Of a DNA stretch of 64,000 nt, positions 948-52,670 are shown piece after piece. Under the pieces are notes generated by a model. The model made no database searches and was not told where the DNA came from. It saw only the letters and a program-made list of their open reading frames with translations. The DNA is taken from assembly GCA_028286685.1 (NCBI GenBank), contig JAQBRA010000006.1, positions 1,993 through 65,992 on the forward strand, given 5' to 3'. Numbering within the stretch: position 1 is the first letter of the stretch; the number at the start of each line of letters is the position of its first letter. Source of the stretch: Candidatus Adlerbacteria bacterium (GTDB taxonomy: Bacteria > Patescibacteriota > Minisyncoccia > Phycocordibacterales > SBAW01). Made by a program: the position numbers and the translations under genes.

Positions 948-1721
948 ATGAGAACTTTGTACTGGGCCTTGGGCATTATTATTGTCGCCATGCTGGGCTT
1001 TTTTATCTGGAATTCTTATATGACACCAACAACTGCACAGGAGAAAGCAAGCCAGGTATCGCCGGTCGGCGTAGTGCCTATCGAGCACGCGACCGCCGTC
1101 TTGCGCTGGGGCGGCACCATTATCTACACCGACCCGACTGACGCGAGCCTGCTCGCGGACCAGCCGGAGGCCAACATTGTCTTGATAACCGATATCCATG
1201 GGGACCACTTCAGCACCTCCACCCTCCTGGAAGTCGTGGGGCCTGACACTGCCCTAGTCGTGCCGCAGGCCGTAGCGGACCTGCTCCCGTCCGACCTGGC
1301 CGCGCGCGCCCAGATACTCGACAACGGAGGGAGTACGACCATAGGCAGCCTGCAGATCATCGCGATACCCATGTACAACCTACCCGAGTCAGCCGACAGC
1401 CGCCACCCGAAAGGCCGCGGCAACGGCTACGTGCTTGAACAGGACGGCTACCGCGTGTATATCGCTGGCGACACGGCCGGTACCCCAGAGATGCGCGGAC
1501 TCCAAGACATCGACCTGGCGCTGGTGCCCATGAACTTGCCCTTTACCATGGGCGTCGACGAGGCGGCTGATGCGGTCTTGGACTTCAAGCCTAAAATTGT
1601 ATACCCGTATCACTACCGCGGACAAGACGGCCTGGCGGACGTCGAGCGCTTCAAAACCTTGGTCAATGCGGGCGACCCCAACATTGAGGTTATTCTCGCC
1701 AAGTGGTATCCGGAACAATAA
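948..1721 (+). CDS. MBL-fold metallo-hydrolase with N-terminal membrane anchor
   Basis: An N-terminal TM helix (LYWALGIIIVAMLGFFIW) is followed by the ITDIHGDH metal-binding motif and later His/Asp residues typical of the metallo-beta-lactamase fold. The ORF-track start at 939 is TTG; the first ATG is at 948. Confidence 0.7.
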   Translation: MRTLYWALGIIIVAMLGFFIWNSYMTPTTAQEKASQVSPVGVVPIEHATAVLRWGGTIIYTDPTDASLLADQPEANIVLITDIHGDHFSTSTLLEVVGPDTALVVPQAVADLLPSDLAARAQILDNGGSTTIGSLQIIAIPMYNLPESADSRHPKGRGNGYVLEQDGYRVYIAGDTAGTPEMRGLQDIDLALVPMNLPFTMGVDEAADAVLDFKPKIVYPYHYRGQDGLADVERFKTLVNAGDPNIEVILAKWYPEQ

Positions 1722-1735
1722 TAGAACCCAAAAGA

Positions 1736-1772
1736 AAACCGCCCGGCGCTAGCGCCGGGCGGTTTTCTTTTG
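1736..1772. terminator. bidirectional rho-independent terminator
   Basis: aaaaccgcccggcgct/agcgccgggcggtttt perfect palindrome followed by cttttg, flanked by convergent genes ending at 1721 (+) and 1835 (-). Confidence 0.65.
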
Positions 1773-1834
1773 CTCCCCACTTTGTATTTCTGCGCCCTCT
1801 CTCGGCCCGCGCAGCTTCTGCCGCAAATATCGAG

Positions 1835-2632
1835 CTAGTTTCTGCTCCAGACAATGTCCGAAGATTTCGTCGAGCTTTTATTGCCGGATGCGGCAGGAGC
1901 CGCCACTGCCTTTGAACGCACAACCGTAAAGGTGCCCTCCTCAATCTCAGACGGAGTCGCCAGAGGCACCTTGCCCTGCTTGGACACCATGGTAACGGCG
2001 CGGGCGCGGGCATCTTCTGCGGACTTGTATTTGCCGTTTACTATCGCGAATGCATTGGAGAAGGTAACCGATCCGAACTCCGAGAGCGGCGCATACAGCT
2101 GGACGCTGTCCTTGCTGAACACTTTCGGCATCTCCTGGATCCATTCGACCGAGGAATATTTGGAGCGGTACTCAAGCGCCTTTTGGAACTCCGCCCCAGT
2201 CGTGAGGTTAAAGAAGGAAAGGTGCCAGAAGCCGGGAGTGATCTCAAACAGCGAGGCGCTCACCCGGTCGCCGGCTGCAACCTTAAATGGCACGACGACC
2301 TGGTAGTCGGGCAGGAGCTCGTACCATGCCCAGTACTGGGTCTTGCCGTTCTGCACCGCGCCCTGCGTGCCTGCCTGAATAAGGTCTTTGCTTTTCGATC
2401 CGCCGATGCCCAACCAGGCGACATCGGTCATAAGGGTCGTAGTAGCGGCAAGGGCGGGCACCGTCCAGGTTGCGCCTACGCCCGTATACTTGTCGCGCGT
2501 AGCGACATAGCCGGACCAGTTGCCCGATAGTCTGCCGTTGATAGCGTCCTCGGTTGCCGCCCACGCCGGCGCCGCAGCGCCCAAGAACAGCGCGAGCGCC
2601 AGGAATAATTTAGCCGCCAAGCGAGTATGCAT
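1835..2632 (-). CDS. secreted peptidase family G1 (eqolisin / scytalidoglutamic-peptidase-like glutamic peptidase)
   Basis: Signal peptide MHTRLAAKLFLALALFLGAAAPAWA. Motifs SGNWSGYVA, WLGIGG...LIQAGT (catalytic Gln context) and VEWIQE (catalytic Glu context) match the fungal eqolisin signature. ATG at 2632; the track start at 2647 is TTG. Confidence 0.65.
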   Translation of the reverse strand: MHTRLAAKLFLALALFLGAAAPAWAATEDAINGRLSGNWSGYVATRDKYTGVGATWTVPALAATTTLMTDVAWLGIGGSKSKDLIQAGTQGAVQNGKTQYWAWYELLPDYQVVVPFKVAAGDRVSASLFEITPGFWHLSFFNLTTGAEFQKALEYRSKYSSVEWIQEMPKVFSKDSVQLYAPLSEFGSVTFSNAFAIVNGKYKSAEDARARAVTMVSKQGKVPLATPSEIEEGTFTVVRSKAVAAPAASGNKSSTKSSDIVWSRN

Positions 2633-2677
2633 GGCTCCAGTATACAACCGCCAGAACGCGGGCGTAATAGCGGGCGG

Positions 2678-2908
2678 CTAGCGGGCCATTTTGCCGCCGC
2701 GAGCCTTGTTGTTTTCCTGGGCGCCGGACTTGCCACGGAAGCGGCCTCCCCTGCCGCGCAGCTTGGCGGCGATTTTTGAGAGCAGCGCCACTTCGGTTTT
2801 ATGGTTTTGCCTGACTGTCTGTCCAATATCAGATTCTTCGCTCCGGTAATCCTTGTAATACATGTATGAGCCTTCGTTATCTTTATCTTTTTTATCAGGC
2901 ATAGGCAA
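2678..2908 (-). CDS. small basic hypothetical protein
   Basis: 76-aa ORF with a Lys/Asp-rich N-terminus and an Arg/Gly-rich C-terminus; no recognisable domain. Confidence 0.3.
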   Translation of the reverse strand: MPMPDKKDKDNEGSYMYYKDYRSEESDIGQTVRQNHKTEVALLSKIAAKLRGRGGRFRGKSGAQENNKARGGKMAR

Positions 2909-3054
2909 AGTCTACCCACGCCCCCTGAAATACCGGTGAGAGCCGCGCCGCCGACTCACCCGCGCTTCAGGCCAAAGGTTTTAAATAGAAAGGTACGACA
3001 GCGATCGATTACCAAATAATCTTACTTACTTTAGTCCGTTAAATTAATACCTCT

Positions 3055-4611
3055 ATGAAATCAGCATTATTCACTGCTCACAAAAAAGCAGCCATTTCCT
3101 TGTTTTTGGCCGCCGCGAGCGCAGCGATTCTTCTTGTGGCTCTTCCGGCGCTCGCCGACAGCTCGGCAAATAGCAACTTCGAAAACCCGCCCTACGTGCC
3201 GGGGAATATAAACGGCCAGGACGGCTGGAGCAAAACAGGCGCGTACGATGCTGCGGTCACCAGTTCCTTTGGCGTGCCCGACTTCGGCAACCAGAGCCTG
3301 CGCATCTCAAACGCGGTTACCTCAAGCTCGTTCGCTGACCAGACCTTCGCCAAGCCTACTGCAGACGGCGCGGGCGAAGCCGACTCGACCTCGGGCGGAT
3401 TCGCAACCGGTACTCTGGCAAGCCACTTCCAGGCAGAGTTTGACCTCAGATCAGTGCAGCTCATGCAGCAGCCGGGACTCTCTATATCCGTTTCCCCCGA
3501 CCGGGGCGACGGCTCGCGCATGAGCTATCTTAGATTCGAGGACCAAGCCGACGGCATCCACGTGTTCTTCAACGATGCGCAGGGCTCGAGCACCTCTGCC
3601 GACTTTGTCGAGACCGACATAGCGACACTCAGCCGCGCCACGACGCACACCATAGGGTTCTCCATGGACTTCGTAAACGGGCCCTCCAACGATGTAGTTG
3701 AAATATATATCGACGGGGCGCTCGCCCATACCGGCACGAGCTGGGAAAACTATTACCGCTTCGATCCGGAGTCAGCTGCAGAGCAAAGCCCCCGCATCGT
3801 AAAGACCCTGCTCTTTAGAGCGGCGGGCACTGCTGCGACCTCAACGCAGGGCTTGGGCTACCTTATCGACAACCTGGAGATGCTCGCCTCAGGCTCAGCC
3901 CAGGGCGGTGGGAATGGGGACGTAACGGTAACCATAAGCAAATATATTGACGGCACTATGGCAACCTCCGGCAGCGCGCAGTCCCTGGCCTTCCCCATGA
4001 ACGCGAGCTGGAACGCGCAGAACATCGGCTCAAGCTCGGGGAGCTTCACGCTCTCGCCGCAGGGCTCCAATAGCCCGAACGCATACCAGGCTATCACTGC
4101 GGACATGACCTCGGGCGCGTCGTATTCGGTCGCCGAGGACACGAGCGGCGCCAATGTCGCCCAGAACTGCAGCGCAGGCAAGCCTTACTCGCTCGTCGGC
4201 TACACCACAGGTACCAGCTCGGCTGCCGCAGCGGCTGCAACGCCCAGCCTCACGCCGCCCAGCTTCTCCAACCTGACCGGAGACCAGTATGTCATCGTAT
4301 GGAACCATGCCTGCACCGACACCGGCACTACGACGCCGCCAACCACCGGCAACCCTAACGGCGCCTCCGTCGACCAGAACGGCTCGACCGTGCGCGCGGG
4401 CGGGCACCTGGACTTCGTAGGACGCAACTTCGGCCACGAGCAGGACGTTGCCATCTCGCTTGGCGGCTCCGTGATACGCACGGTGCATGCCGACGGCGGA
4501 GGCAACTTCTCTACCGGCTCGATGACCGCGCCCGCAACGCCGGGCACGTACCAGTACGAGTTTAAGGACTCGGGACATACGGTCATCGCCACCATTACGG
4601 TAGTGCCATAA
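3055..4611 (+). CDS. secreted hypothetical protein (beta-rich lectin/Ig-like domains)
   Basis: ATG preceded by an AT-rich leader. Signal peptide (LFLAAASAAILLVALPALA), a long Ser/Thr/Gly/Asn-rich beta-type sequence, a Thr/Pro-rich linker (TTPPTTGNP) and no C-terminal anchor. Confidence 0.6.
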   Translation: MKSALFTAHKKAAISLFLAAASAAILLVALPALADSSANSNFENPPYVPGNINGQDGWSKTGAYDAAVTSSFGVPDFGNQSLRISNAVTSSSFADQTFAKPTADGAGEADSTSGGFATGTLASHFQAEFDLRSVQLMQQPGLSISVSPDRGDGSRMSYLRFEDQADGIHVFFNDAQGSSTSADFVETDIATLSRATTHTIGFSMDFVNGPSNDVVEIYIDGALAHTGTSWENYYRFDPESAAEQSPRIVKTLLFRAAGTAATSTQGLGYLIDNLEMLASGSAQGGGNGDVTVTISKYIDGTMATSGSAQSLAFPMNASWNAQNIGSSSGSFTLSPQGSNSPNAYQAITADMTSGASYSVAEDTSGANVAQNCSAGKPYSLVGYTTGTSSAAAAAATPSLTPPSFSNLTGDQYVIVWNHACTDTGTTTPPTTGNPNGASVDQNGSTVRAGGHLDFVGRNFGHEQDVAISLGGSVIRTVHADGGGNFSTGSMTAPATPGTYQYEFKDSGHTVIATITVVP

Positions 4612-4946: not shown

Positions 4947-5240
4947 GCCCGCCTTCATTTTAGTATCAGGCGCTCCCTGCATACTGGACTCATGCAAACA
5001 GAACGAGAAATAATCCTCACGTGCCAGGAGTGCGGACACCAGGAGACGGACTCCGACCAGAAACTGCTCATGCTCAAGGTAAGGATGTATAACCACATCA
5101 ATCATGCGCATCCGGTGCTGGCCGAGCGATTTAAGGAAGTTGTCGAAGAGCACTCCACCTTGGTGTACTAGTTCCACGCAGACTGGCGTCCGGAAAACTA
5201 AACCCTCAGATCCTGGTTGTATTTACAAAGCCCATTTGGT

Positions 5241-7328
5241 ATGGTGGCGGTGACTATGCCCCCTCTCTTTTCTGGCCATCCGACCGCTACGTACGCCCTG
5301 CGCTTCGGGCTGCTTACGCTTATATATGGCACTGCCGTTTGGATAAGCCTTTGGCTCGTACCTGCAACAGGCGGCGCCTCCCTAGTGTGGCCGGTAGCGG
5401 CCGTAGGCCTCGCGGGACTCCTGTTTTGGGGCATCAACCTGTGGCCGGCGCTCACCCTATCCTTTTTCCTGGTAGTGGCGGCCGGCGGCGTGGACCCGTC
5501 GGCAGCGGTAGGCGTGGCGCTCGGTAATACGCTCGAGGCCGTGCTCGGCGCCCACTTGCTCATATGGCTCGGCTTCCACCCGCTCATGAGCCGCTTGCGC
5601 GACGCCTTGGGCCTTATCCTGGCCGCCTTTACTTCCACCTTCGTATCGGCGACCGTCATCGCCGCCAGTACGGCGCTTTTTATAACGCATTCCTTCAGCG
5701 CCGACCTTTGGACCAGCCTCTGGATAGGCCACAGCGTATCGCTCCTGTCCTTCGGAGCATTTGCCCTGCGCTGGGGCTACCGGCCGTTTTTTGCCAAGAG
5801 CCAGCAAGAACTGTTTGAGGGCCTAGCGCTCTTCGGACTCGTCGGCTTCGTGTCGTACTTGGCAGCATGGACCGAGTTTGACTCGCTGGGGCCCGTGTCG
5901 CTTGTCTATGTCCTCGTGTTCCTCCTCATTTGGGCGAGCCTGCGCGCGGGCCCGCGCGGCACCACGCTGGCCTTGCTCATAATGACGCTCATTTCCACGA
6001 CAGCGCTCCTGTTCGGGCCCGATGCCTCGCTTGAGCGCGCCGGATCCCTGCTATTTGGCATGCAGGTCCTGATAGGCACGCTGTCCATCATCTTCCTGCT
6101 CTTTACGTCCATTACCGAAGAGCGCAAAGAGGCGGTTATAGCGCTTGGCGCCCAGGTGGGCAAGCTTGAGGATGCCCTCCTGAAGATATCGTCGGAAGAT
6201 GCCGCCAAGAGCGAATTTATCGCCATACTCGCGCACGAGCTGCGCAACCCGCTTTCTCCCGTACTATCGGGCCTCGAAATCCTCAAAGCGAAAGAGTCGG
6301 GACCCAAGGAAGTGCTCCACATGATGGGCGCGCACCTCCATACTCTGGCCCGGCTGCTCGATGACCTCCTGGACATTACGCGCATCTCGCAGAAAAAATT
6401 CAAGCTCGAGCGCGAAGTGACGACGCTGCAGCATATTATCGAGCGCTCTTTGGAGATGGCGGGCCCCTACATGGCCGAGCGCAATCACACCTTTACCAAA
6501 GAGATGCCTTCGCAAGATATCCTCATGGACGCCGATCCGGTGCGGCTTACCCAGGCGGTGGTCAACCTCCTTAACAATGCGGCAAAATATACGCCGCCGG
6601 GCGGCACCATAAGCCTGGGCTTAGTGAAGGAAGGGCGCCAGGCGGTTATCCGCGTGCGCGACAACGGGCAAGGCATCGCGATCGAGCGCCTGCGGAAGGT
6701 ATTCGAGCCGTTTGCGGGCGGCGCACAGCGCTCGAAGGGCCCGGGCGGGCTCCACATAGGGCTTTCTTTGGTGCGGCGCATGGTAGAGCTCCATGCCGGA
6801 ACGGTTGTGGTGAAGAGCGGCGGCGTCGGCCAGGGAAGCGAGTTTACGATCCGCCTCCCCTTGCCTGCCGCGCCCCTGGAGAAAGCCCCCGAGCCCATAG
6901 CGCCTAAAAAAGAAACGCGCGGCCGATTTTCCAAAGAGGCTATGGAGCACGCACGCGCGGCCGGACCGGTCGCCGTCTTAGTGGTTGACGATAACGAGGC
7001 TGCAGCCCAGATGCTCTGCACCCTGCTTGAGCACAATGGCCACACCGTTTCCTTGGCGCACACCGGCCTTTCGGCGCTTGACGTAGCGCGCCAAACGCAG
7101 CCGCAGGTGGCCCTCCTCGACATCGGACTCCCTGACATAGATGGCTACGAGGTTGGCAAGCGGCTGCGCGCAGAGCTCGGTGCCCAAGTAGCCCTGGTCG
7201 CGCTTACCGGCTACGGCCAGCCGGAAGACCGCGAGCGCGCACGCCAGGCGGGCTTTGACGACCATCTGGTAAAGCCGGTTTCTATCGTCGACGTCGAGCG
7301 CATTCTGGCGCAGCTCCGCCGCGCCTAG
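5241..7328 (+). CDS. hybrid sensor histidine kinase (multi-TM sensor, HisKA, HATPase_c, C-terminal receiver domain)
   Basis: About 300 aa of polytopic membrane domain, the H-box IAILAHELRNPLSPV, N/G boxes (NLLNNAAKYTPPGG, DNGQGI, GLGLSLV) and a C-terminal REC domain (VLVVDDNEAAAQM...LLDIGLPDIDGYEV...VALTGY). The ORF-track start at 5217 is TTG; ATGs lie at 5241 and 5256. Confidence 0.8.
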   Translation: MVAVTMPPLFSGHPTATYALRFGLLTLIYGTAVWISLWLVPATGGASLVWPVAAVGLAGLLFWGINLWPALTLSFFLVVAAGGVDPSAAVGVALGNTLEAVLGAHLLIWLGFHPLMSRLRDALGLILAAFTSTFVSATVIAASTALFITHSFSADLWTSLWIGHSVSLLSFGAFALRWGYRPFFAKSQQELFEGLALFGLVGFVSYLAAWTEFDSLGPVSLVYVLVFLLIWASLRAGPRGTTLALLIMTLISTTALLFGPDASLERAGSLLFGMQVLIGTLSIIFLLFTSITEERKEAVIALGAQVGKLEDALLKISSEDAAKSEFIAILAHELRNPLSPVLSGLEILKAKESGPKEVLHMMGAHLHTLARLLDDLLDITRISQKKFKLEREVTTLQHIIERSLEMAGPYMAERNHTFTKEMPSQDILMDADPVRLTQAVVNLLNNAAKYTPPGGTISLGLVKEGRQAVIRVRDNGQGIAIERLRKVFEPFAGGAQRSKGPGGLHIGLSLVRRMVELHAGTVVVKSGGVGQGSEFTIRLPLPAAPLEKAPEPIAPKKETRGRFSKEAMEHARAAGPVAVLVVDDNEAAAQMLCTLLEHNGHTVSLAHTGLSALDVARQTQPQVALLDIGLPDIDGYEVGKRLRAELGAQVALVALTGYGQPEDRERARQAGFDDHLVKPVSIVDVERILAQLRRA

Positions 7329-7337
7329 CCGCAGCCG

Positions 7338-7937
7338 CTAGCGCAGCTCCGCATACACCACCAGCCGGCGGTCGTATTCTTTCTTATCCTTGATCCATGC
7401 CCCGTCGCAGGTAACCAGGTGCAGGTATGCGCCGCCTTTCTTATTAAACAGCTCATCAAGCGGGACCTCGGCCGCCGCATAGGACTCAACGCGTACCACT
7501 ACGAACCTAAGCGGCGTCGACGATGCCGTATCTACGTATATTTCATCCCCCGGCGCAAGATCGCCCAGATGCTTGAAGACGCCGTCAAGCGCCAATGCGT
7601 TGTCGACATGGCCGTCCATAACCGCGCTGCCCTCAAATCCGGGCACGGTGCCGTACTTGTACCAGCCGGCATCGGTAAAGTTGCCGGGCGTTGCCATATT
7701 GCCCGCTTCATTAATGCCCACCTGCTTTACGTGCGCATCAATACCGAGCGCGGGTATGCGCAGGCGCTCGGGCAAGTCGCCAGGTTCTGCCTGGCGTGCG
7801 GGCGCTGCGGCTGCCAGGGTGCTGGAAGCCATTTCTATATCAGGCGCATACCATACCGCACGCGCAAGCGTGGTAGCGAATACCACGCTTGCGGCTGCGG
7901 TTATGAGAGCGACGATAAGCCGCGGGCTTACGCGCAT
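7338..7937 (-). CDS. sortase family transpeptidase
   Basis: N-terminal TM anchor, catalytic His context (MDGHVD), the TLxTC-type active-site motif LHLVTCDG and a downstream Arg (RRLVV). Confidence 0.8.
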   Translation of the reverse strand: MRVSPRLIVALITAAASVVFATTLARAVWYAPDIEMASSTLAAAAPARQAEPGDLPERLRIPALGIDAHVKQVGINEAGNMATPGNFTDAGWYKYGTVPGFEGSAVMDGHVDNALALDGVFKHLGDLAPGDEIYVDTASSTPLRFVVVRVESYAAAEVPLDELFNKKGGAYLHLVTCDGAWIKDKKEYDRRLVVYAELR

Positions 7938-7943
7938 GCCAGT

Positions 7944-8192
7944 TTAGGCTTCCTTGCGGGTACGGGCCAAGTACAGGCCGCCGCCGACCAGAACTGCGGC
8001 TGACAAGCCCAAGACGGCTATCGTAGCTGCAGCTTCGCCGCCCTGCCCGGTGGACGGTACGCCCGGAGTGGCCTGAGTAGTAGCATCGGTGGTGGTCTGC
8101 GCGTAGGTCAGCGGCGCCGCAAGCGCCAAAAGCGTTCCCACCATAAGCCCTACTGCGCCGCCCGCTATCCGCTTCGTTAAGGCTAGAGTCAT
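7944..8192 (-). CDS. 82-aa secreted peptide with C-terminal sortase-type sorting signal (VPSTG + TM + RTRKEA)
   Basis: Signal peptide MTLALTKRIAGGAVGLMVGTLLALAAPLTYA, a roughly 17-aa Thr-rich mature segment, VPSTG, a hydrophobic stretch IAVLGLSAAVLVGGGLYLA and a basic tail RTRKEA. The gene ends 7 nt upstream of the sortase start on the same strand. Confidence 0.5.
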   Translation of the reverse strand: MTLALTKRIAGGAVGLMVGTLLALAAPLTYAQTTTDATTQATPGVPSTGQGGEAAATIAVLGLSAAVLVGGGLYLARTRKEA

Positions 8193-8255
8193 AAAGAAAT
8201 TAGATTATGCGTCTAATCGATTCACCCACCCAAGCGTTTAGGTTTGCCGGCGGGA

Positions 8256-8789
8256 CTACTTGTCAGTATGCGGGCGGGCGCTGAAATAGGAATGAACGGC
8301 AGCATATGCCACTGCGGCGCTCGCAACACCCAACAAGAGACCTGCCACAACATCAAGAGGATAATGGAAGCCGATCAGCACGCGCGCGAGGCCCACCAGG
8401 GCGGCACACAGCAGCAAAAAAGCCGAGAGCCACCGATTAAAGAAAAAAGCTAGTGCAGCCAAGGCGCCGAGCGCAGCCGCATGGTCAGACGGAAAAGAAT
8501 TATCAACCTCGTGCGGCACGAGCGGCTCGTAGCCGTACGCCGCAAAAGGCTGCTCATGGCTAAAGAAGAGCCCCGCTAATCGCGCCACAGCATAGGCGAG
8601 CGGGAGTGCGACCAGAGCGGCCAGCGCAAGTTCAACTTTAACGGCGCGCGGGGCCCACAGCCAATACGCGGCACAGGCAAGCAGGGCCGCCGCAGGCAAG
8701 TATTGGGCGCAGAAGATAACAAGGATTTCGTACATAGGGAAACTATACCACCACCGCAAAGCGGCTTTTGCTATACTGCCGCTATGCAT
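8256..8789 (-). CDS. PAP2 family phosphatase (phosphatidic acid / undecaprenyl-diphosphate phosphatase-like)
   Basis: Polytopic membrane protein carrying the PAP2 signature motifs SFPSDHAA and GFHYPLDVVAG. Confidence 0.75.
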   Translation of the reverse strand: MHSGSIAKAALRWWYSFPMYEILVIFCAQYLPAAALLACAAYWLWAPRAVKVELALAALVALPLAYAVARLAGLFFSHEQPFAAYGYEPLVPHEVDNSFPSDHAAALGALAALAFFFNRWLSAFLLLCAALVGLARVLIGFHYPLDVVAGLLLGVASAAVAYAAVHSYFSARPHTDK

Positions 8790-49715: not shown

Positions 49716-52670
49716 ATGTCCGCCCCGTTTGTCCCGTTGCGCGTCCACTCCCATTACTCGCTCCTTAAGGCGCTGCCGAAAATCCCCGACCTCGTTAAGA
49801 AAGCCAAGGCCGAAGGCTGTACTGCGCTTGCGCTTACCGACTTGGGTAACCTCTACGGCGCCATCGAATTTTACAAAGAGTGCCAGGGCGCCGGCATCAA
49901 GCCCATTATCGGGCTGGAATCGGTTATGGAAGGCGGCAAGCATATTCTGCTGTACGCCAAGAACCGCGCAGGCTACCAGAACCTGCTAAAGCTCGTTACC
50001 AAGTCGCACCTCAATTCCCCCGGCAACCCGATGCTCACGAGCGCCATGCTCGAAGAGCATGGCGAGGGCCTCATAACCATCGACCCCAAGGAAACCGATA
50101 TGCCGATGCGCGAAGTGTTTTATATCGAGCCGGACGACCGCCGCGCCTGGGAGACGCTGCGCGCGATTGAGAACCGCGGACCGGTCGAAACCGGCGACCT
50201 CGATGAGGACGAAGACGACTTCTCCTTCCCCACCGCGGCATACATGGAAGAGCGCTACGGCGCCCCGGCAATGCAAAAAACTACTGATCTGGCCGCTGAA
50301 TGCGAGCTCGATCTTAACCTCGGCAAATGGTTTTTCCCCGACATCGAAATACCCGAAGGCACGAACTACGACGAAGAGCTGCGCCGCCTGGTTGAAGAAG
50401 GGCTCAAGCGCCGTTTTATCCAGGAGACCCCTGAGGCGCGGACGCGCATCGAGTACGAGTACGAGATTATTACAAAAAAAGGTTACTCGCCGTACTTCCT
50501 GGTAGTGGCCGACCTGTTGGCGTTTGCCCGCGCAAACAAGATACTGACTACGATCCGCGGCTCGGTCGCCGGCTCGCTGACCACGTACGTCTTGGGCATT
50601 ACCAACGTAAACCCGTTGGCCTACAAGCTCCCCTTCGAGCGCTTTCTTAACCCGGAGCGCCCGTCGGCACCCGACATCGACATGGACTACGCCGACAACC
50701 GGCGCGACGAGGTTATTGAATATGCCCGCCGCAAGTACGGCGAGGACAAGGTGGCGCAGATCGGTACCTTCGGCACCATGCTCGCGCGCGGCGTCGTTCG
50801 CGACGTCGCGCGCGCACTCGGTTACCCGTACGGCCTGGGCGACGCTATCGCAAAAGAAATTCCCATGGGCTCGCAGGGCTTTGCCATGACGCTTGAGCGC
50901 GCCATGAACGAGAACCCGGAGCTCGCCAAGATGTACAAGAAAGACGCGCAGGTGCGCGAGATTATCGACCTCGGCCAAAAGATTGAAGGCTGTGCGCGCC
51001 ACGTGGGCGTCCATGCCGCGGGCGTCGTCATCTCGCCCACCCCGCTGACCGACTACACCCCGCTGCAGCTCGACCCGAAAGGCGGCAAGCTTATTAGCCA
51101 GTACGACATGTATTCGATCGATGAGAACAATGCCGGACTCCTCAAGTTCGACTTTCTCGGCATCCGCAACCTGGCCATACTCGCCCACTCGGTCGAGCTG
51201 GTGGAAAAGACCCGCGGCATCACTATTGATATTGAAAATGTTCCGGTAGACGACACTAAAACCTTTGAGATGCTTGCGCGCGGCGAAACGGAAGGCCTCT
51301 TCCAGCTCAACGGCTCGGGCATGACGCGCTTCCTTAAAGAGCTGAAGCCCTCGACCATCCACGACATCAATGCGATGGTGGCGCTATACCGCCCGGGCCC
51401 GATGGAAACGATCCCGCAGTACATCGAGCGCAAGCACAACCCGGCAATGGTTTCCTACGCCGACCCGCGTATGAAGGATTATCTGGAGTTCTCTCACGGC
51501 GTGCTGGTGTACCAAGACGACGTGCTTCTGACCGCTATTACCTTGGGCGGCTACAGCTGGCTTGAAGCGGACAAGCTGCGCAAGGCGATGGGCAAGAAAA
51601 TTCCCGAAGTTATGGCCGCCGAAAAAGAAAAGCTCATCAAGGGCTTTATCGAGTACGGCAAATTGCGGCCACAGCTCGCAGAAAAGCTCTGGAAACTGAT
51701 TGAGCCGTTTGCGGCATACGGATTTAACAAGGCGCACGCTGCCTCCTACGGCAAGGTGGCGTACCAAACCGCCTACATGAAGGCCAACTTCCCCGTGGAG
51801 TATATGAGCGCGGTTCTGACCGCTGAGGCCGGCGACATCGAAACCGTGTCGACCATGGTTGGCGAGTGCAAGCGCATGGGCCTGCCGGTTTTGGCACCCG
51901 ATGTTAACGAGAGCTTTGGCGACTTTACGGTGATACTTGCCGATAACGCAGAGGAAAAGGACGCGATCCGCTTCGGCCTTTACTCTATTAAGAACTTCGG
52001 CAGCGGGGTGGCAGATTCCATCATCGCCGAGCGCAAGACGGGAGGACCTTTCGTTACCCTTTCGGACTTCCTGACCCGGGTCAAAGACAACGGCCTTAAC
52101 AAGAAGGGCCTGGAGTCGCTTATTAAGTGCGGAGCGCTCGACTCGTTGGGCGAGCGCGGGCAGATGTTTGCCCACATAGAGAAGCTCCTGCAGTACCATC
52201 GCGATGCGGCAGCCGACCACCAACACGAATCATTGTTTGCGGGCGTGGCAGAAATGAGCCAGCTGACCCTGCCCAAAGCAGAGCCTGCCCGCATGGACGA
52301 CAAGCTTATCTGGGAGAAGGAATTGCTGGGCCTGTATGTCTCCGGGCACCCTCTGGATAAATTCAAAGAGAAGCTCGACAAGCGCCCGATGAACCTGGCC
52401 CAGATTAAGGAGCGCAGTTACCCGGGCACCACTACGGTTATTGCCGGCATGGTTGAGGACCTGCGCGTACTGCTTACCAAGAACGGCGACCAGATGGCCT
52501 TCCTCAAGCTCGCGGATTTTTCGGGCTCGGTCGAAGCGGTCGTGTTTCCGAAAAGCTTTGTCGAATACAAGGCCATTTTGCGCCCCGAAGCCTGCATCGC
52601 CATTAAGGGCCGGGTCTCCAACCGCAACGGCGAGTTTTCAATCGTGACCGAAGCGCTCAAGGCATTATAA
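49716..52670 (+). CDS. dnaE: DNA polymerase III alpha subunit (short form)
   Basis: PHP domain (RVHSHYSLLKA), the polymerase core (GVHAAGVVIS, FDFLGIRNL) and an OB domain. 984 aa from ATG 49716, shorter than the roughly 1160 aa of E. coli-type DnaE. Confidence 0.85.
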   Translation: MSAPFVPLRVHSHYSLLKALPKIPDLVKKAKAEGCTALALTDLGNLYGAIEFYKECQGAGIKPIIGLESVMEGGKHILLYAKNRAGYQNLLKLVTKSHLNSPGNPMLTSAMLEEHGEGLITIDPKETDMPMREVFYIEPDDRRAWETLRAIENRGPVETGDLDEDEDDFSFPTAAYMEERYGAPAMQKTTDLAAECELDLNLGKWFFPDIEIPEGTNYDEELRRLVEEGLKRRFIQETPEARTRIEYEYEIITKKGYSPYFLVVADLLAFARANKILTTIRGSVAGSLTTYVLGITNVNPLAYKLPFERFLNPERPSAPDIDMDYADNRRDEVIEYARRKYGEDKVAQIGTFGTMLARGVVRDVARALGYPYGLGDAIAKEIPMGSQGFAMTLERAMNENPELAKMYKKDAQVREIIDLGQKIEGCARHVGVHAAGVVISPTPLTDYTPLQLDPKGGKLISQYDMYSIDENNAGLLKFDFLGIRNLAILAHSVELVEKTRGITIDIENVPVDDTKTFEMLARGETEGLFQLNGSGMTRFLKELKPSTIHDINAMVALYRPGPMETIPQYIERKHNPAMVSYADPRMKDYLEFSHGVLVYQDDVLLTAITLGGYSWLEADKLRKAMGKKIPEVMAAEKEKLIKGFIEYGKLRPQLAEKLWKLIEPFAAYGFNKAHAASYGKVAYQTAYMKANFPVEYMSAVLTAEAGDIETVSTMVGECKRMGLPVLAPDVNESFGDFTVILADNAEEKDAIRFGLYSIKNFGSGVADSIIAERKTGGPFVTLSDFLTRVKDNGLNKKGLESLIKCGALDSLGERGQMFAHIEKLLQYHRDAAADHQHESLFAGVAEMSQLTLPKAEPARMDDKLIWEKELLGLYVSGHPLDKFKEKLDKRPMNLAQIKERSYPGTTTVIAGMVEDLRVLLTKNGDQMAFLKLADFSGSVEAVVFPKSFVEYKAILRPEACIAIKGRVSNRNGEFSIVTEALKAL

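Follow-up and report, generated by a model that had tools for sequence, protein, structure and literature searches.

A 64-kb stretch of DNA (hereafter the window) from Candidatus Adlerbacteria, of the Parcubacteria/Paceibacteria branch of the Candidate Phyla Radiation (CPR), encodes a sortase and, directly upstream of it, an 82-residue precursor, here called the mini-substrate, in which a predicted signal peptide is followed by a short Thr-rich spacer and a sortase sorting signal. The preferred reading of this two-gene cassette, to which a probability of roughly 0.6 is given, is that the sortase is paired with its own cargo-less substrate and processes it by the canonical wall-anchoring mechanism. 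To our knowledge, what the sortases of CPR bacteria anchor is not known to anyone. Over half of CPR genomes encode sortases (PMC6744442), and a Parcubacteria sortase lineage that is tied to a tiny, passenger-free substrate turns attention away from the identity of a displayed adhesin and toward the reason for attaching a bare Thr-rich peptide. The features of the cassette are the following:

7338-7937, minus strand: sortase gene, 199 amino acids (aa), with the motif YLHLVTCDG (Pfam Sortase match)
7944-8192, minus strand: gene of the mini-substrate precursor, 82 aa (open reading frame (ORF), homologs, ratio of nonsynonymous to synonymous substitution rates (dN/dS), profile matches)
8100-8192, minus strand: predicted signal peptide, residues 1-31 (sequence reading, -3/-1 rule)
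8049-8099, minus strand: predicted mature peptide QTTTDATTQATPGVPST, Thr-rich, residues 32-48, 17 aa (alignment and family counts)
8046-8060, minus strand: VPSTG sorting pentapeptide, residues 45-49 (position-specific family counts)
7947-8045, minus strand: post-cleavage segment, residues 50-82, with a QGGE linker, a hydrophobic helix and the cytoplasmic tail RTRKEA (sequence and alignments)
7949-7955, minus strand: AAGGAAG, a Shine-Dalgarno-like string within the 3' end of the mini-substrate ORF (sequence reading)

The precursor has the layout MTLALTKRIAGGAVGLMVGTLLALAAPLTYA|QTTTDATTQATPG-VPSTG-QGGEAAATIAVLGLSAAVLVGGGLYLA-RTRKEA, and an identical database entry, annotated as hypothetical, comes from a Candidatus Adlerbacteria metagenome-assembled genome (MAG). 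The two genes are in the same frame and separated by 6 nt (7938-7943). An earlier sequence-only reading of this DNA had put the gap at 7 nt, and had rightly placed both genes on a shared strand, with the correction that this is the minus strand. The AAGGAAG string stands 11 nt before the ATG of the sortase, and its location inside the end of the mini-substrate ORF suggests that the translation of the sortase may be coupled to that of the substrate.

The mini-substrate gene and its family

The predicted signal peptide has an n-region that contains K7 and R8, continues with an h-region and P27, and ends at a putative signal peptidase I site, TYA|Q; A31, Q32 and T33 do not vary within the close clade. 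The predicted mature part from Q32 to T48 counts 17 residues, which agrees with the sequence-only estimate of about 17. The predicted scissile bond of the pentapeptide is T48-G49, and this T/G bond lies within TTPGVPSTGQGGE. The tripartite C-terminal signal is made of VPSTG, a 27-residue stretch rich in Gly, Ala, Leu and Val, and RTRKEA; all the elements of the architecture proposed beforehand (signal peptide, short spacer, VPSTG, helix and RTRKEA) can be read in the sequence.

The small ORF is a real gene that is under strong purifying selection. A word-indexed search gave 41 close homologs, all of 72-88 aa, in which P46, G49 and G52 are invariant and T48 is nearly so. Over nine orthologous loci the dN/dS of the gene is 0.15 (Nei-Gojobori) at a proportion of synonymous differences (pS) of 0.66, with the lowest value, 0.11, in the signal-peptide segment. 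This degree of purifying selection speaks against an untranslated ORF, which the sequence-only reading had named as an outcome that would count against it.

The architecture is kept throughout a large family. A profile search of 1.84 billion cluster representatives (E<=1e-3) extended the family to 213 clusters at 50% identity, nearly all of 58-140 aa, and 190 sequences were analysed for the statistics that follow. The median length is 81 aa, with 151 of the 190 members at or below 100 aa. The xPxTG-type motif, the absence of which from homologs was another outcome named beforehand, is present in 188 of the 190 members, in the form xPx[T/A]G, with a hydrophobic helix and a basic tail behind it. 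An AxA-type signal-peptidase site, [A/G/S]|Q, precedes the mature part in 182 of these 188, the usual mature start being QTT or QTS. Measured from this Gln to the Thr of the motif, the mature part is at least 10 residues long, with a median of 19; Thr accounts for 32% of its composition, Gly and Ser for 11% each and Pro for 10%, and lysine occurs in only 8 of the 182 mature parts. The spacer ranges across the family from 3 to about 80 residues. The shortest mature peptide is QTTTPGVPxT, which is composed of the signal-peptidase P1' residue, one Thr and the recognition motif.

This recognition motif is longer than a pentapeptide. In its extended form it reads T-T-P-G-[V/A/T]-P-[N/S/D/A/E]-T-G-x-G-G-[D/N/E] and leads into a helix in which an Asn, a Leu and a Tyr are conserved. 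Among the 188 motif-bearing members, the Pro and the Gly of the pentapeptide are found in all and the Thr in 182, while on the flanks the Pro at -2 is kept in 177, the Gly at -1 in 161, and the Gly residues at +2 and +3 in 181 and 174, respectively. The helix Asn is present in 123 of the 188, and the helix Leu and Tyr are kept in at least 90% of 67 aligned sorting signals.

When a profile of the sorting signal alone, built without the signal peptide and without QTTT, was used on 5.8 billion proteins, all 59 of the significant matches were proteins of 54-88 aa, and the seven matches that carry a taxon name all belong to Paceibacterota, Parcubacteria, Patescibacteria or Adlerbacteria; the taxonomy of the family is read from these and a few other named homologs. 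The same signal is found behind an N-terminal domain in four larger proteins of 216-407 aa (P0252, P0257, P0293 and P0295). The sorting signal is therefore overwhelmingly a signal of mini-proteins, perhaps not exclusively so, and the larger carriers may be substrates with real cargo for the same sortase lineage in some genomes.

Three further features of the family were observed. In the larger carriers the signal has the form TPG[V/A]PNTGxGGD and stands behind an N-terminal domain that looks shared among them (e.g., ...SVPV...S...C.LR...). Tandem copies of PG[V/A/T]PxTG with a short stretch rich in Ser and Thr between them are found in P0211, P0225, P0228, P0252, P0293 and P0308; the helix follows the last copy only, and the copies are possibly alternative cleavage sites or the result of slippage in low-complexity DNA. 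Finally, Ala replaces Thr at the predicted P1 position in 5 of 188 members, including those of loci L002 (VPAAG), L004 (APAAG) and L018 (3747-3947, APAAG) and the protein P0025 (VPAAG). The P1-Ala mini-substrates of L002 and L004 sit in loci of the BacA type, which are described below.

The sortase and its pairing with the mini-substrate

The enzyme of the cassette has the fold and the catalytic triad of a sortase. It matches the Pfam Sortase family PF04203 with 73.8 bits against a cutoff of 26.6 (E 1.3e-20), over 124 of the 125 profile positions, and 44 homologs all retain H110, C177 (in LVTCDG) and R191. The TLxTC-like motif that the sequence-only reading had named is borne out, in the form YLHLVTCDG. 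F20 of the N-terminal helix and the pair W92-Y93 are also invariant in the 44 homologs, and T23 and A27 are kept in at least 90% of them. The AlphaFold2 model, made with the homolog alignment, has a mean predicted local distance difference test score (pLDDT) of 86.7 and consists of a transmembrane helix (residues 5-29), a disordered linker and a beta-barrel.

All 50 matches listed by Foldseek against the PDB are sortases, of classes C, A and E, with a probability of 1.0 and a query-normalised TM-score of approximately 0.5-0.6. Given that none of these classes is clearly the nearest, the structure leaves the class of the enzyme unsettled. Among the class models of NCBIfam, the best is class_F_sortase NF033748, with 128 bits, a score that is below the 166-bit cutoff for membership of class F; class E reaches 34 bits and classes C and D less than 20. 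Several of the homologs are named class F sortase by the Prokaryotic Genome Annotation Pipeline (PGAP). No sequence match to the sortase was found in the PDB by phmmer at E<=0.01, and a profile search of the PDB returned distant sortases only, with E of about 1e-6. Taken together, the sequence and the model point to a membrane-anchored, class-F-like sortase with a predicted xPxTG transpeptidase activity.

The pairing of the two genes was followed over the 64 kb of the genome itself and over flanks of up to 10 kb in other genomes, in a small sample that comprises 5 + 4 loci from genome and metagenome contig scans with the family alignment and 12 exact-protein look-ups. The co-occurrence of the two genes in relatives, which the sequence-only reading had put forward as a check, is conserved: the mini-substrate gene is directly upstream of the sortase gene in 16 distinct loci, with sortases that are 39-75% identical to that of the window, and both are lost together in locus L009. 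Starting from the mini-substrate, the sortase is the next gene downstream in 13 of 13 loci (L001-L008 and L020-L024). The eight contig-scan loci with a full mini-substrate gene have sortases of 66-75% identity that start 3-21 nt downstream, and five mini-substrates of distant clusters (P0163, P0234, P0311, P0184 and P0323) are followed by sortases of 39-49% identity in unrelated genomic contexts, such as ftsZ...tsaD...tRNA synthetase. Starting from the sortase (seven loci, 51-56% identity), a mini-substrate gene is directly upstream in five (L012, L014, L016, L018 and L019).

Given that the genomic contexts differ between clades, the sortase is the only constant partner of the mini-substrate. 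Indirect support for the pairing comes from the contigs of the close homologs, since for at least 24 of the 41 the longest contig is equal in size to that of a listed sortase homolog. A regular-expression scan of the six frames found no second ORF with a sorting signal in the window. In L019 the source annotation lacks an evident ORF of a mini-substrate that immediately precedes the sortase gene (3679-3939, plus strand); the family is probably under-annotated in public MAGs.

Locus L009 shows what the loss of the cassette looks like. The interval 1312-1464, between a PAP2-family phosphatase gene (836-1309) and a hybrid histidine kinase gene (1468-3555, minus strand), has its flanks intact and the sortase gene gone, and holds a frameshifted, N-terminal remnant of the mini-substrate gene of 32 codons (1364-1459). 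With the flanks kept, the sortase absent and the mini-substrate frameshifted, the cassette was lost as a unit.

It could be argued that the small ORF of the window is itself what is left of a larger LPXTG surface protein after decay, or that it was over-called and has no function, given that it is covered by no Pfam or NCBIfam family, that its centre is of low complexity and that gene callers sometimes miss it, as in L019. This is contradicted by the selection on the gene, by the 213 clusters with intact signal peptides and sorting signals, and by a position beside the sortase that is kept down to 39% sortase identity; moreover, the true remnant in L009 is different, being frameshifted and without a sortase. 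A non-functional remnant is effectively excluded.

Proposed processing, alternatives and related systems

The processing proposed for the cassette, that is, both cleavages, the acceptor, the glycosylation and the physiological role, is drawn by analogy from the known behavior of the sortase family. The 82-residue precursor would be exported by Sec and cut by signal peptidase I after TYA31, and the new N-terminus, Gln32, would probably cyclise to pyroglutamate. The C-terminal helix and the RTRKEA tail would retain the precursor in the membrane, where Cys177 of the sortase would attack the T48-G49 bond of VPSTG to give a thioacyl intermediate. The Thr-rich peptide, of 17 residues here and of 10-20 in most relatives, would then be passed to the free amine of the stem peptide of lipid II, and the lipid II-linked peptide would be incorporated into peptidoglycan. 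With its high content of Thr, Ser, Gly and Pro, the spacer is similar to O-glycosylated linkers and to the segments with which ordinary LPXTG proteins span the wall, and on this likeness the Thr cluster is probably an O-glycosylation handle, so that the product may be a glycosylated, hydrophilic, wall-bound brush.

In its overall design this processing is that of canonical LPXTG sorting, as known from class A sortases of Firmicutes and classes E and F of Actinobacteria, with which the cassette shares a predicted signal peptide, the pentapeptide, the helix, the basic tail and a membrane-anchored His-Cys-Arg sortase. The pentapeptide itself matches in its invariant Pro and Gly and its near-invariant Thr. 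In contrast to canonical substrates, the mini-substrate has no folded passenger, the mature part being of 10-20 aa in most members, its motif reaches beyond the pentapeptide in both directions (TTPG...xGG[D/N/E]), and its gene tightly adjoins that of the sortase.

Several observations weigh against the preferred reading. At its first position the motif has V, A or T and never the L of LPXTG, and the hidden Markov models of the LPXTG anchor remain below their cutoffs on the mini-substrate (PF00746, 15.1 bits versus 20; TIGR01167, 13.4 bits versus 15.9). No adjacent mini-substrate gene was seen at two of the seven loci approached from the sortase (L010/L011 and L017), and the few proteins of 216-407 aa that share the signal mean that the sortase may not be strictly dedicated. 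No O-glycosyltransferase of the GT-C type was identified adjoining the cassette. A wall-bound peptide of 10 residues, as predicted for the shortest members, would have no obvious display function. Furthermore, the residues after the scissile bond (GxGG[D/N/E] and the helix Asn) are far more conserved than canonical signals require, which may reflect an additional constraint, for example a specific match to the sortase or a role for the segment that remains in the membrane.

This last option can be formulated as an explanation of its own, in which the membrane remnant that starts with GxGG[D/N/E] and is freed by the sortase cut is the functional product, acting as a signal to or a partner of another membrane protein such as a MASE1 kinase. 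The unusual conservation of the post-cleavage segment, both at the Gly residues of +2 and +3 and at the Asn, Leu and Tyr of the helix, would be explained in this way, and a suitable kinase is at hand: a hybrid histidine kinase with MASE1, HisKA, HATPase and receiver domains is encoded convergently to the sortase in the window (5217-7328, plus strand) and at L016 (4603-6585, minus strand), and is the kinase that flanks the lost cassette of L009. In the window, the stop codons of the kinase and sortase genes are 9 nt apart. A convergent ORF of 691-734 aa, the domains of which were not scanned, occupies the position of the kinase in L001 and L003-L005. There is also a precedent, given that the C-peptide of an LPXTG protein is sensed by the histidine kinase of a two-component system in Streptococcus gordonii (PMC11326707). 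Nonetheless, no kinase neighbors the cassette at the distant loci L012, L014, L018, L019 and L021-L024, where the pair persists without it, while L009 keeps the kinase and has lost the cassette, and the conservation of the helix could equally mean a fit to the transmembrane helix of the sortase, in which F20 is invariant and T23 and A27 nearly so. A signaling role for the remnant is for these reasons considered unlikely.

The conservation at the other end of the mature peptide raises a different alternative, namely that the sortase joins the peptides to one another. The amine of Gln32 would resolve the thioacyl intermediate, giving either a head-to-tail polymer rich in Thr and Pro or a cyclic peptide of about 10-20 residues. 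In vitro, sortase A can cyclise or oligomerise peptides if their N-terminus is suitable. Here the mature N-terminus shows striking conservation (Q at +1 in 182 of 188, with QT[T/S] dominant), the shortest products consist of the N-terminal QT and the recognition motif only, and internal PGVPNTG motifs stand in tandem in the six members named above. On the other hand, an N-terminal Gln tends toward pyroglutamate, which would block the amine, and natural sortases are not known to us to accept an alpha-amine other than that of Gly as nucleophile. A cyclic product of defined size is hard to reconcile with a spacer of anywhere between 3 and about 80 residues. The tandem motifs are duplications in the genome and do not mark ligation junctions, and there is neither a pilin-motif lysine nor an Ig or CnaB domain. 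Ligation of this kind is accordingly regarded as very improbable.

The lack of lysine also bears on the pilin-like polymerisation that the sequence-only reading had offered as an option. It is true that class C sortases and the pilins that they assemble resemble the cassette, in that the substrate gene adjoins that of a specific sortase, and that class C enzymes are among the top structural neighbors of the sortase. However, the mature part in the window has 17 residues and no Lys, no pilin domain is found in the family, the structural similarity to classes A and E is equally good, and no lid motif was seen in the AlphaFold2 model. A polymerised pilin was for these reasons rejected as the main explanation.

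Within the wall-anchoring reading, the shortest product is close to Gln, Thr and the recognition motif, so that the cargo would be either the Thr cluster or the modification of the wall acceptor itself. In a more far-reaching variant, the cassette would be a Parcubacteria-specific, peptide-based modification of the wall rather than a device for protein display, with a dedicated sortase that loads pyroGlu-Thr3...PGVPxT peptides of about 10-20 residues onto lipid II; this is put forward tentatively. If true, the cassette could cap stem-peptide amines and so tune cross-linking or protect the wall of the epibiont from lytic enzymes. Alternatively, it could install an attachment handle for an O-linked wall glycopolymer, with a role like that of the teichoic acids attached by LCP proteins in Firmicutes. 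The exchange of phosphatase genes beside the cassette, described in the next section, would in that case reflect a real coupling to the undecaprenyl-phosphate cycle.

Among the known sortases, those of class F are the closest by the class model, by the PGAP names of the homologs, by the single N-terminal anchor and by the xPxTG-type motif. The only characterized member of this class is SrtF of Propionibacterium acnes, and the other physiological roles of the class are unknown even in cultivated Actinobacteria (PMC13251363). In the actinobacterial enzymes a conserved Asn is reported to replace the catalytic Arg (PMC8703055), whereas Arg191 is invariant in the lineage of the window; the subthreshold class F score, the lack of a PDB sequence match and the CPR host also set the enzyme of the window apart from this class.

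Small substrates of low complexity are also known outside the sortase family. The PEP-CTERM/exosortase systems, known from the work of Haft, include many short substrates composed of little more than a signal peptide, a stretch rich in Ser and Thr and a sorting signal, the genes of which are linked to those of the processing enzyme and of glycosyltransferases. A panel of C-terminal sorting systems that includes PEP-CTERM/exosortase is summarised in 10.1101/2023.06.07.544157. The small, Ser/Thr-rich substrates and their linkage to the processing enzyme are the points of likeness to the cassette, whereas the exosortase is polytopic and unrelated to sortases, and the motif, the taxa and the presumed acceptor differ. 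GspA of Actinomyces oris is a glycosylated sortase substrate. SspA of Actinoplanes is a disordered protein anchored to the wall (PMC13293333). In both, as would be the case for the mini-substrate, what matters is a disordered or glycosylated stretch and not an enzymatic or adhesive domain, with the glycosylation of the mini-substrate being only predicted; they are far larger and do not form a two-gene unit with a dedicated sortase. Lpp, Braun's lipoprotein of Escherichia coli, is a very small and abundant protein without a catalytic domain that is attached to peptidoglycan. It is joined by L,D-transpeptidases through its C-terminal Lys, anchored by lipid in the outer membrane and folded as a helical trimer. 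It is comparable in being a very small envelope polypeptide whose role depends on attachment to peptidoglycan, and it has no homology to the mini-substrate in sequence or in mechanism.

The machinery is of a known kind, and what is new is the substrate without cargo, the extended motif, the tight linkage to a dedicated sortase lineage and the breadth across Parcubacteria. A full-text literature search found no description of the family or of the cassette in open-access text, and an earlier mention elsewhere is possible; with no Pfam or NCBIfam family either, the judgment of the sequence-only reading that such pairs are not a well-described class holds. The family is uncurated, with at least 200 clusters that are labelled hypothetical or missed by annotation pipelines. 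For the poorly understood cell envelope of CPR bacteria it provides a concrete target, a defined peptide of 10-20 residues that can be sought in mass spectra of muropeptides and glycopeptides. A naturally minimal pair of sortase and substrate with an extended recognition motif may also be of use in the engineering of sortase ligation.

Neighboring genes and the upstream region

Upstream of the cassette lies a gene of a phosphatase:

8256-8789, minus strand: PAP2-family phosphatase (Pfam PAP2 1.6e-17; NCBIfam UppP-type models below cutoff)

It is 63 nt upstream of the mini-substrate gene on the same strand, and from its sequence the product is probably an undecaprenyl-diphosphate phosphatase. 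Beyond it, the window encodes a DedA/VTT protein, a GT4 glycosyltransferase and a PAP2_C protein. The order PAP2, mini-substrate and sortase is repeated in L001, L003, L006, L008, L016 and L020, often with a small GT2 gene adjoining; the PAP2 gene is at 4471-4947 in L001, 4492-4968 in L003, 2765-3256 in L006, 3184-3642 in L016 and 2454-2906 in L020.

In three loci the PAP2 gene is replaced by a divergent BacA/UppP gene, all on the minus strand (L002, 1839-2639; L004, 4123-4977; L005, 4056-4817), with Pfam BacA E values from 3e-67 to 2e-72. BacA and PAP2 are two non-homologous families of undecaprenyl-diphosphate phosphatases. Approximately 40 nt that match the 3' end of the PAP2 gene remain beside the BacA gene in L002 and L005, and the remnant in L004 is more degenerate; as read from these sequences, the exchange looks like a non-orthologous displacement in situ. 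Such a displacement hints at a functional link between the cassette and the cycle of lipid II and undecaprenyl, one that is restricted to certain clades, including that of the window. As general parts of the cassette, PAP2, DedA and the glycosyltransferases were rejected, given that they are absent from L012, L018, L019 and L021-L024.

A scan for sigma-70 sites found no consensus promoter upstream of the mini-substrate gene. A short GC-rich stem follows the stop codon of the PAP2 gene, within the stretch upstream of the mini-substrate gene (8193-8262, minus strand, in the window, and the equivalent 70 nt in L001, L002, L004-L006 and L008). It was considered as a structured RNA regulator and rejected, with an RNAalifold energy of -2.6 kcal/mol and no compensatory pairs. 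Elsewhere in the window, ARAGORN calls a tRNA-Glu(CTC) of 88 nt (50153-50240, minus strand), the only tRNA in the 64 kb, at a place where Rfam has no tRNA even at E<=1, and either the call is spurious or the tRNA is highly aberrant, in all probability. Closer to the cassette, a conserved string (T)AGGTAAT(C)T stands approximately 12-20 nt before the ATG of the mini-substrate in the window and in L001, L002, L004-L006 and L008, and in the window it reads CGCATAATCT.

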